Origin: an uncultured Candidatus Saccharibacteria bacterium
GTDB taxonomy: Bacteria; Patescibacteriota; UBA1384; DATEAH01; CAYPSR01
DNA length: 42,456 nt
Direction: 5' to 3'
Assembly (NCBI GenBank): GCA_964413595.1
Contig: CAYPSR010000002.1
Span: forward strand, 1 to 42,456
Part shown: positions 28,259 to 28,753 of the stretch, piece by piece
How positions within the stretch are numbered: position 1 is the first letter of the stretch
Layout of the letters: every line of letters starts with the position of its first letter
Notes under the pieces: generated by a model
Databases searched by the model: none
Told to the model about the DNA's origin: nothing
The model's input: only the letters and a program-made list of their open reading frames with translations
Made by a program: the position numbers and the translations under genes

Positions 28259-28276
28259 AATTAAATAATATAGAGT

Positions 28277-28747
28277 ATGGAAACATTGACAACAGAAACA
28301 ACACAGGCAAAATCAGCCGAAGAATATTTGGCTGGATTAGAAAGTTTTTCTAAAGAACAAACGCTTTCAAGATTAATGCTATTGTCTGGTATTAGAAAAA
28401 ATTATTTTTTGACTCAAGATTGGTCTCAATTAAAACCAGACAGATCAAGGCAAGATTTGAGTCAAGTTCATGATTTATCAACTTTTGAACTTGGGTTATT
28501 AGACTATCAACTAAAAACGATGCCTTATTTGTCTATGCAATTAGAGGCAATTGATAGATCCGTTCACGAATTATTTTTTAATGTCGATGAAAGGCCAAGA
28601 ACCCACATCCCGAACAAACAGCTTATTGTTGATATATATAATCGTACACCTGATATTTTTGTTGCTATTGGTGGTCCATTAACTGAAGCTGAATTAAAGG
28701 ATGCACCGTTAGGTGAAGAAACTTTATTATTAAAAGCTAGTAATTAA
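28277..28747 (+). CDS. ORFan paralog family, copy 5
   Basis: YLAGLESFSKEQTLSRLMLL; IGGPLTEAELKDAPLGEE. Inserted between rpsM and rpsK. Confidence 0.65.
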   Translation: METLTTETTQAKSAEEYLAGLESFSKEQTLSRLMLLSGIRKNYFLTQDWSQLKPDRSRQDLSQVHDLSTFELGLLDYQLKTMPYLSMQLEAIDRSVHELFFNVDERPRTHIPNKQLIVDIYNRTPDIFVAIGGPLTEAELKDAPLGEETLLLKASN

Positions 28748-28753
28748 ATAATC

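Follow-up and report, generated by a model that had tools for sequence, protein, structure and literature searches.

The junction between rpsM and rpsK in the genome of the uncultured lake bacterium analysed here has been filled by the insertion of a single orphan gene, whose flanks carry two copies of an 11-mer, AATTAAATAAT, that stands once in the empty site of a relative. Ribosomal-protein superclusters are among the most conserved bacterial gene orders, and the adjacency of rpsM and rpsK is nearly universal. The inserted gene is the fifth member (copy 5) of a family represented by five open reading frames (ORFs) in the 42.5-kb stretch of DNA that was analysed (the window). The distribution of filled and empty sites among relatives points to a genuine insertion that happened once, in the ancestor of the window species and its sister species. 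We consider it probable, with moderate confidence, that the two flanking 11-mers are copies of the ancestral rpsM–rpsK spacer, produced or used by the insertion. No new mobile element is revealed by this structure, which is a real insertion scar in which the filled and the empty site of one event can be read base by base. It provides a rare, datable case of a new gene slipped into an essential polycistronic operon with its neighbours unbroken. The family to which the gene belongs is a fast-evolving orphan family that has colonised four supercluster junctions in this Patescibacteria lineage.

The inserted gene and its family

The window covers the str/S10/spc/alpha ribosomal-protein supercluster of a Patescibacteria-type bacterium (30% G+C); L30 is absent from this supercluster. 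The closest named relatives by S13 are Berkelbacteria and 'Patescibacteria group' MAGs. The initial annotation described copy 5 as bracketed by a direct repeat, and the positions it gave hold (Table 1): the two 11-mers are the sole exact copies of AATTAAATAAT in the window. The upstream copy begins at the first base past the rpsM stop codon. The downstream copy includes the TAA of the ORF and ends 1 nt short of the rpsK ATG, the single intervening nucleotide being a C at 28753. The ORF stop codon (28745–28747) lies only 6 nt from the rpsK ATG, and the unique portion of the insert consists of a 7-nt leader followed by the ORF without a stop codon of its own. The spacer that would be restored by removing one repeat and the intervening sequence had been put at 14 nt; removal of this segment (483 bp) leaves TAA-AATTAAATAATC-ATG, which is a spacer of 12 nt. 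A longer, degenerate duplication reaching into the tail of rpsM (21 nt, 81% identical) was also considered and rejected: the extra 10 nt match at 6 of 10 positions in an A-rich context, and the sister species matches at 5 of 10, the chance level.

Table 1 Coordinates of the genes and sequence features of the window discussed in the text
Feature	Position	Strand	Details
AATTAAATAA at the universal rplC|rplD junction	12563–12572	+	same register, AAT TAA ATAA..ATG
Family copy 1	21529–21975	+	between rplO and secY
Family copies 2–4, tandem array	24178–25786	+	between the LysM-protein gene and adk
Copy 2	24178–24729	+	in-frame TGA at 24376–24378
Copy 3	24732–25229	+	LysM|adk array
Copy 4	25289–25786	+	LysM|adk array
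rpsM (ribosomal protein S13)	27872–28258	+	ORF; stop TAA 28256–28258; PF00416 on identical product
Upstream 11-mer AATTAAATAAT	28259–28269	+	rpsM-proximal copy of the putative ancestral rpsM–rpsK spacer
Leader of the inserted ORF	28270–28276	+	7 nt, ATAGAGT (sister species: ATAGAGC)
Inserted ORF, family copy 5	28277–28747	+	156 aa, acidic, predicted all-helical, no known family
Downstream 11-mer	28742–28752	+	last codon of the ORF (AAT), stop TAA and next 5 nt
rpsK (ribosomal protein S11)	28754–29158	+	ORF; PF00411

Copy 5 is a real, maintained gene under purifying selection. Six population contigs and the sister species all preserve its frame, and comparison with the sister orthologue gives a dN/dS of 0.39 (43/~365 non-synonymous versus 28/~103 synonymous; Fisher p = 3e-4). 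The six contigs, all from the same population, are identical over the locus except for one 3-nt indel allele. No promoter or terminator above shuffle expectation was found in the insert, no inverted repeat joins its ends, and a search of positions 27000–29600 against Rfam yielded no match. Farther upstream, the rpmJ–rpsM intergenic region (27747–27871) is only 49% identical between the window and the sister species, with indels, against 84–92% for the flanking genes; a hairpin is located within it at 27747–27763.

The five ORFs have in common an N-terminal YLxxLxxLPxEQRxxRL block and a C-terminal IGGxxxxxEExxxPL block, and the family proteins are helical, acidic and about 150–190 residues long. 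Database searches place them in no described family. Pfam has no match for the five window copies, and neither NCBIfam nor PHROGs has one for 17 aligned family members. PADLOC, run on the same 17, returned one stray match (PycTIR, 1/17, E = 0.007). The sole PDB profile match, a marginal one between positions 18–82 of the family profile and residues 133–197 of Bax1 (6p66_B; E = 0.0096, 19 bits), pairs the N-terminal helical block with an archaeal endonuclease and is probably spurious noise. An AlphaFold model built from the 17 members is all-helical (pLDDT 63); Foldseek found no usable match to this model in the PDB (best E = 3). A five-copy profile searched against 1.84 billion representative proteins matched 10 proteins, mostly the window's own. 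The copy-5 alignment had no match in metagenomes, and copies 4 and 5 had none in viral contigs.

Family members with a readable context all lie within ~8 kb of the supercluster, at rplR|rpsE, rplO|secY, LysM|adk and rpsM|rpsK. The LysM|adk array is the apparent home locus. It holds three copies in the window, five in the sister species (L172 2714–5609; relatives are designated by locus numbers throughout) and at least four in a third species (L171 328–2017). Orthologues within the array are only 34–43% identical, with a dN/dS of 0.43–0.49, between species whose S13 proteins are 87% identical. Identity between paralogues is 15–30% at the protein level, and they have no DNA ends in common. In both species, the paralogue nearest to copy 5 is the gene that closes the array (27% identity, E about 1e-6), a level that would be compatible with a local duplication followed by very fast divergence.

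Two side observations concern the array itself. Contigs from each of the four lake metagenome runs contain the in-frame TGA of copy 2, with no variant there, and public gene calls split this copy into products of 100 and 91 residues. A 107-residue public protein, P0129, combines a zinc-ribbon-like N terminus (CxxC...CxxC) with the last 44 residues of copy 4, identical to those of the window; it appears to come from a strain variant whose copy 4 has been interrupted or replaced.

Filled and empty sites in relatives

The sister species (L087/L170; S13 87% identical) carries an orthologous ORF at the same site (75.6% amino acid identity), preceded by the corresponding 7-nt leader. An empty-site comparison, suggested by the initial annotation, identified relatives in which rpsM and rpsK have no gene between them. 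In L168 (S13 84% identical), the site reads TAA-TAAATAAAT-ATG. In L169 (S13 77% identical), it reads TAA-AAAAATTAAATAATAAA-ATG, a 17-nt spacer that contains the exact 11-mer once. The two genes are also adjacent, with no family gene, in L174 and L178 (both S13 68%). A degenerate DNA pattern for the S13 C terminus recovered 77 more distant S13 loci, with S13 at most ~72% identical in full-length alignments (two higher values come from partial alignments). None of these 77 loci contains a family gene, and rpsK follows rpsM in all 67 of them where it could be located, with spacers of up to ~290 nt. Searches of genome contigs based on rpsK and SecY returned only distant bacteria among the matches listed, and a search with a LysM-protein alignment found relatives at only 28–36% identity, with no close relative among the species representatives.

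Because of this distribution of filled and empty sites, we infer one insertion in the common ancestor of the window species and its sister, which would postdate the split from the lineages whose site is still empty. The match in L169 indicates that the 11-mer is the ancestral spacer; alone, it is no proof that the second copy arose by duplication. The sister-species flanks, GATTAAATAAT and AAATAAATAAA, match at 8 of 11 positions. Both filled species have the core TAAATAA at each flank, and each close empty species has it once. Because no lineage but that of the window has a perfect repeat, the perfection of the ancestral duplicate is inferred rather than observed.

The same distribution bears on the opposite polarity, in which copy 5 would be ancestral to the four close lineages, and L168 and L169 would have lost it by precise deletion between the 11-mers. 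Deletion between 11-bp direct repeats would indeed leave the single 11-mer of L169, the family is gained and lost elsewhere (for example, two rplO|secY genes have been differentially lost), and the rpsK tree is discordant. However, this scenario requires two independent precise losses rather than one gain, rpsM, secY and rplO all place the window with its sister, and all more distant relatives are empty. In addition, no empty-site joint or structural variant is present in assembler contigs of four lake metagenome runs, which at a depth of 2–6x is weak evidence. We therefore regard the loss scenario as very improbable and retain a single gain.

Divergence around the insert is uneven. Between the window and its sister (L087), dS is 0.33 for copy 5, 0.68 for rpsM, 0.75 for the LysM gene and 2.3 for rpsK, and at precisely the ORF|rpsK junction the nucleotide identity over 27331–29127 falls from ~0.84 to 0.75. 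In rpsK, the window is nearer to L168 (86% amino acid identity) than to the sister (80%). The junction may be a recombination breakpoint at the right end of the insert, or the insert may have spread laterally; such a breakpoint is only suggestive because window–sister identity is heterogeneous elsewhere too, ranging from 0.59 to 0.87 across secY–LysM.

Relatives also show other changes near rpsM. L169 carries two unrelated ORFans, of 112 residues (386–724) at infA|rpmJ and of 69 residues (923–1132) at rpmJ|rpsM, neither with a flank repeat. In L231, a distant relative, the rpsM–rpsK spacer (78 nt after the rpsM stop codon) is a tandem duplication of a ~34-nt unit containing an AAAGG ribosome-binding-like motif. 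Thus, the spacer can be duplicated without any insert.

The flanking repeat: duplication or shared vocabulary

How unusual is an 11-nt flank match in this operon? For each gene, a box of 33 nt at the start was compared with one of the same length at the end. Of 56 window genes, copy 5 has the longest match (11 nt) and copy 1 the second longest (10 nt). Among 74 genes of relatives, none reaches 11 nt and one ordinary gene, rpsE of L179, reaches 10. Mismatched box pairs give P(>=11) = 0.8% and P(>=10) = 2%. The flank match of copy 5 is thus the longest of ~130 genes tested, which speaks for duplication.

The alternative is that the insertion is real and nothing was duplicated: one flank would be the ancestral spacer and the other the insert's own end, with its last codon AAT, its stop TAA and an AT-rich trailer, the tight junctions of an AT-rich operon being drawn from one small vocabulary under the same selection. 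Several findings agree with such a coincidence or convergence. AATTAAATAA is found independently in the same register at rplC|rplD, so the word is a recurrent junction motif, and 8 of 10 occurrences of TTAAATAA are at junctions. Copies of the 11-mer with one mismatch are somewhat enriched (29 found, 18 expected). With its AT-only sequence, the rpsM-proximal box is typical of junctions and has 11–13-mers in common with 4 of 54 other, unrelated gene ends. Because this box is typical and AATTAAATAA recurs at rplC|rplD, the chance level for the rpsM-proximal flank is ~1–7%; with three family sites inspected, it is a few per cent, up to perhaps 10–20%. The sister species matches at only 8 of 11 positions, and it is simpler to expect that a gene arrives with its own stop codon. 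Against coincidence, none of the ~128 other genes reaches 11 nt, the downstream box has no match of at least 11 nt to any gene junction except that of rpsM, and each flank is identical to the spacer sequence that L169 has once at its empty site. We judge coincidence to be unlikely but a serious contender, and our confidence in duplication of, or recombination at, the spacer is lower because the word recurs at junctions of the operon.

The initial annotation drew a parallel with copy 1, and part of it stands: a 10-mer, TATTTATTAT, does flank that gene (21521–21530 and 21976–21985). That rplO|secY has the same architecture as rpsM|rpsK is not borne out, since the 10-mer is absent from the orthologous rplO|secY junctions of three other species (L179, L172 and L180), behaving there as expected of chance. 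The rplO|secY gene has orthologues in species C (L179, sampled together with L169; 69% amino acid identity) and in L180/L181 (L15 67% identical), and is much older than the copy-5 insertion. In species C, one family member lies at rplR|rpsE (L179 3–389) and a tandem pair at rplO|secY (1397–1837 and 1842–2297). Of this pair, the window kept the second gene and the sister only the first (145 residues; L172 211–648), a differential loss, so the upstream junction of copy 1 is probably a secondary deletion scar. Although species C carries the family at these two junctions, it has no insert at rpsM|rpsK.

Flanking duplications were expected at other insertions of the family. None of at least 8 nt was found in any genome examined: not at the LysM|adk arrays of two species, the rplO|secY pair of species C or the sister's 145-residue gene. 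With the rplO|secY gene much older and other insertions free of repeats, there is no support for the proposal of an insertion mechanism shared by the whole family. The lack of flank repeats at other family insertions also counts against duplication at copy 5. A separate repeat lies at the end of the window, where the 3' tail of pheT recurs as an exact direct repeat of 29 nt (41589–41617 and 42428–42456, 839 nt apart; at least 29 nt, as it runs to the window end) flanking a 258-residue ORFan (41649–42425) after pheT. This second, longer junction duplication argues for duplications of variable length.

Routes of insertion and comparison with known systems

On balance, we favour, with moderate confidence, an insertion by short-range recombination or replication in which the ancestral spacer was either duplicated or used as the site of recombination. 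In this model, a family paralogue would have entered the very short rpsM–rpsK spacer once, leaving one spacer copy beside rpsM and the other beside rpsK. A local host recombination or replication process is favoured over transposase cutting with a fixed stagger because the event is short range, duplication length is variable and there are no element ends. The second copy could have arisen (a) by template switching, or by gap repair that re-copied the spacer; (b) by a segmental duplication later trimmed by deletion; or (c) by recombination between two AT-only stop/start junction words, the incoming gene already ending in AAT-TAA-ATAAT. Under pure target duplication, the inserted DNA would carry no stop codon of its own, which counts against duplication in this form. 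Routes (a) to (c) are inseparable because the event is single and old, and a single event establishes no mechanism.

Duplication of the spacer would leave every cistron intact. The upstream copy together with the 7-nt leader would provide the start context for the new ORF, and the downstream copy would provide the ORF's stop codon and the native sequence ahead of the essential rpsK. The promoterless ORF would ride on the operon transcript. This arrangement suggests that short AT-only stop/start spacers are functional units to be preserved or duplicated.

The flanks resemble the target-site duplications of insertion sequences (IS) and MITEs: a short direct repeat of target sequence on both sides, present once at the empty site of relatives. 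Classical transposition would make copy 5 a non-autonomous element moved by a transposase acting in trans, with the 11-mer as target-site duplication, like the 10-bp repeat of copy 1; lengths of 10–11 bp are within the range of known IS target duplications. Unlike IS and MITEs, however, copy 5 has no terminal inverted repeats, and the window contains neither a transposase nor near-identical copies. It consists of a single ORF without a promoter, from a family of divergent paralogues in which no copy has a transposase-like domain. Outside the ORF, sequence not derived from the target amounts to just 7 nt on the upstream side and 0 nt on the downstream side. With paralogues that are only 15–30% identical, the insert is not a repeated DNA element, and the family is confined to one operon. 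Flank repeats measure 11 nt or 10 nt or are absent across family members, and the 10-mer of copy 1 is not conserved at orthologous loci. Classical transposition is thus largely refuted and, in our estimate, hardly credible; the insert appears to be neither a transposon nor an autonomous or MITE-like element.

Copy 5 resembles integron cassettes in being a promoterless ORF expressed from upstream, and resembles both cassettes and phage morons in being an orphan gene slotted between residents. Unlike in integrons, no attC hairpin follows it, since only 6 nt follow the ORF stop codon, no hairpin or terminator-like site is present within the insert, and the window ORFs include no integrase. Unlike phage morons, it has no promoter or terminator of its own.

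A more speculative reading, to which we give little credence, is that the family is an integrase-free 'junction-homing' cassette that spreads by host recombination at an AT-only stop/start junction word. Such spread would occur within, and perhaps between, related genomes. The low dS of copy 5 compared with that of the flanking genes (0.33 versus 0.68–2.3), the drop in identity at ORF|rpsK and the pheT-tail-bounded ORFans of the same genome fit this reading without proving it. If it were true, an essential, highly expressed and conserved operon would be a capture site for fast-evolving orphan genes, and the duplicated spacer would be a portable adaptor keeping both neighbours translated.

PeSL cassettes, found in the hyperplastic regions of T4-type phages, are small ORFans between conserved genes, bounded by a short recurrent motif, and recombination between motif copies has been proposed as a route of gene gain and loss (Arbiol et al. 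2010, PMC2839356; Comeau et al. 2014, PMC4122927). Copy 5 is likewise a small ORFan between conserved genes with a short recurrent boundary motif on both sides. PeSLs are composite promoter–terminator (stem-loop) motifs in phage genomes, whereas the copy-5 motif is an AT-only stop/start spacer of 11 nt in the ribosomal operon of a bacterium. It recurs at rplC|rplD and at both copy-5 flanks, and the other family junctions do not have it. Recombination at the boundary motif of copy 5 is putative.

Finally, the insertion resembles microhomology-mediated illegitimate recombination and template-switch insertion. The donor junctions are unreadable because the donor copy is too diverged (27% identity to the nearest paralogue). 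In these processes, joins form where a few bases, up to about a dozen, are identical, and the length of the duplication varies. Like them, including the homology-facilitated illegitimate recombination of transformable bacteria, the copy-5 insertion would be local and would need no element-encoded enzyme; such recombination is a candidate for the event at rpsM|rpsK.
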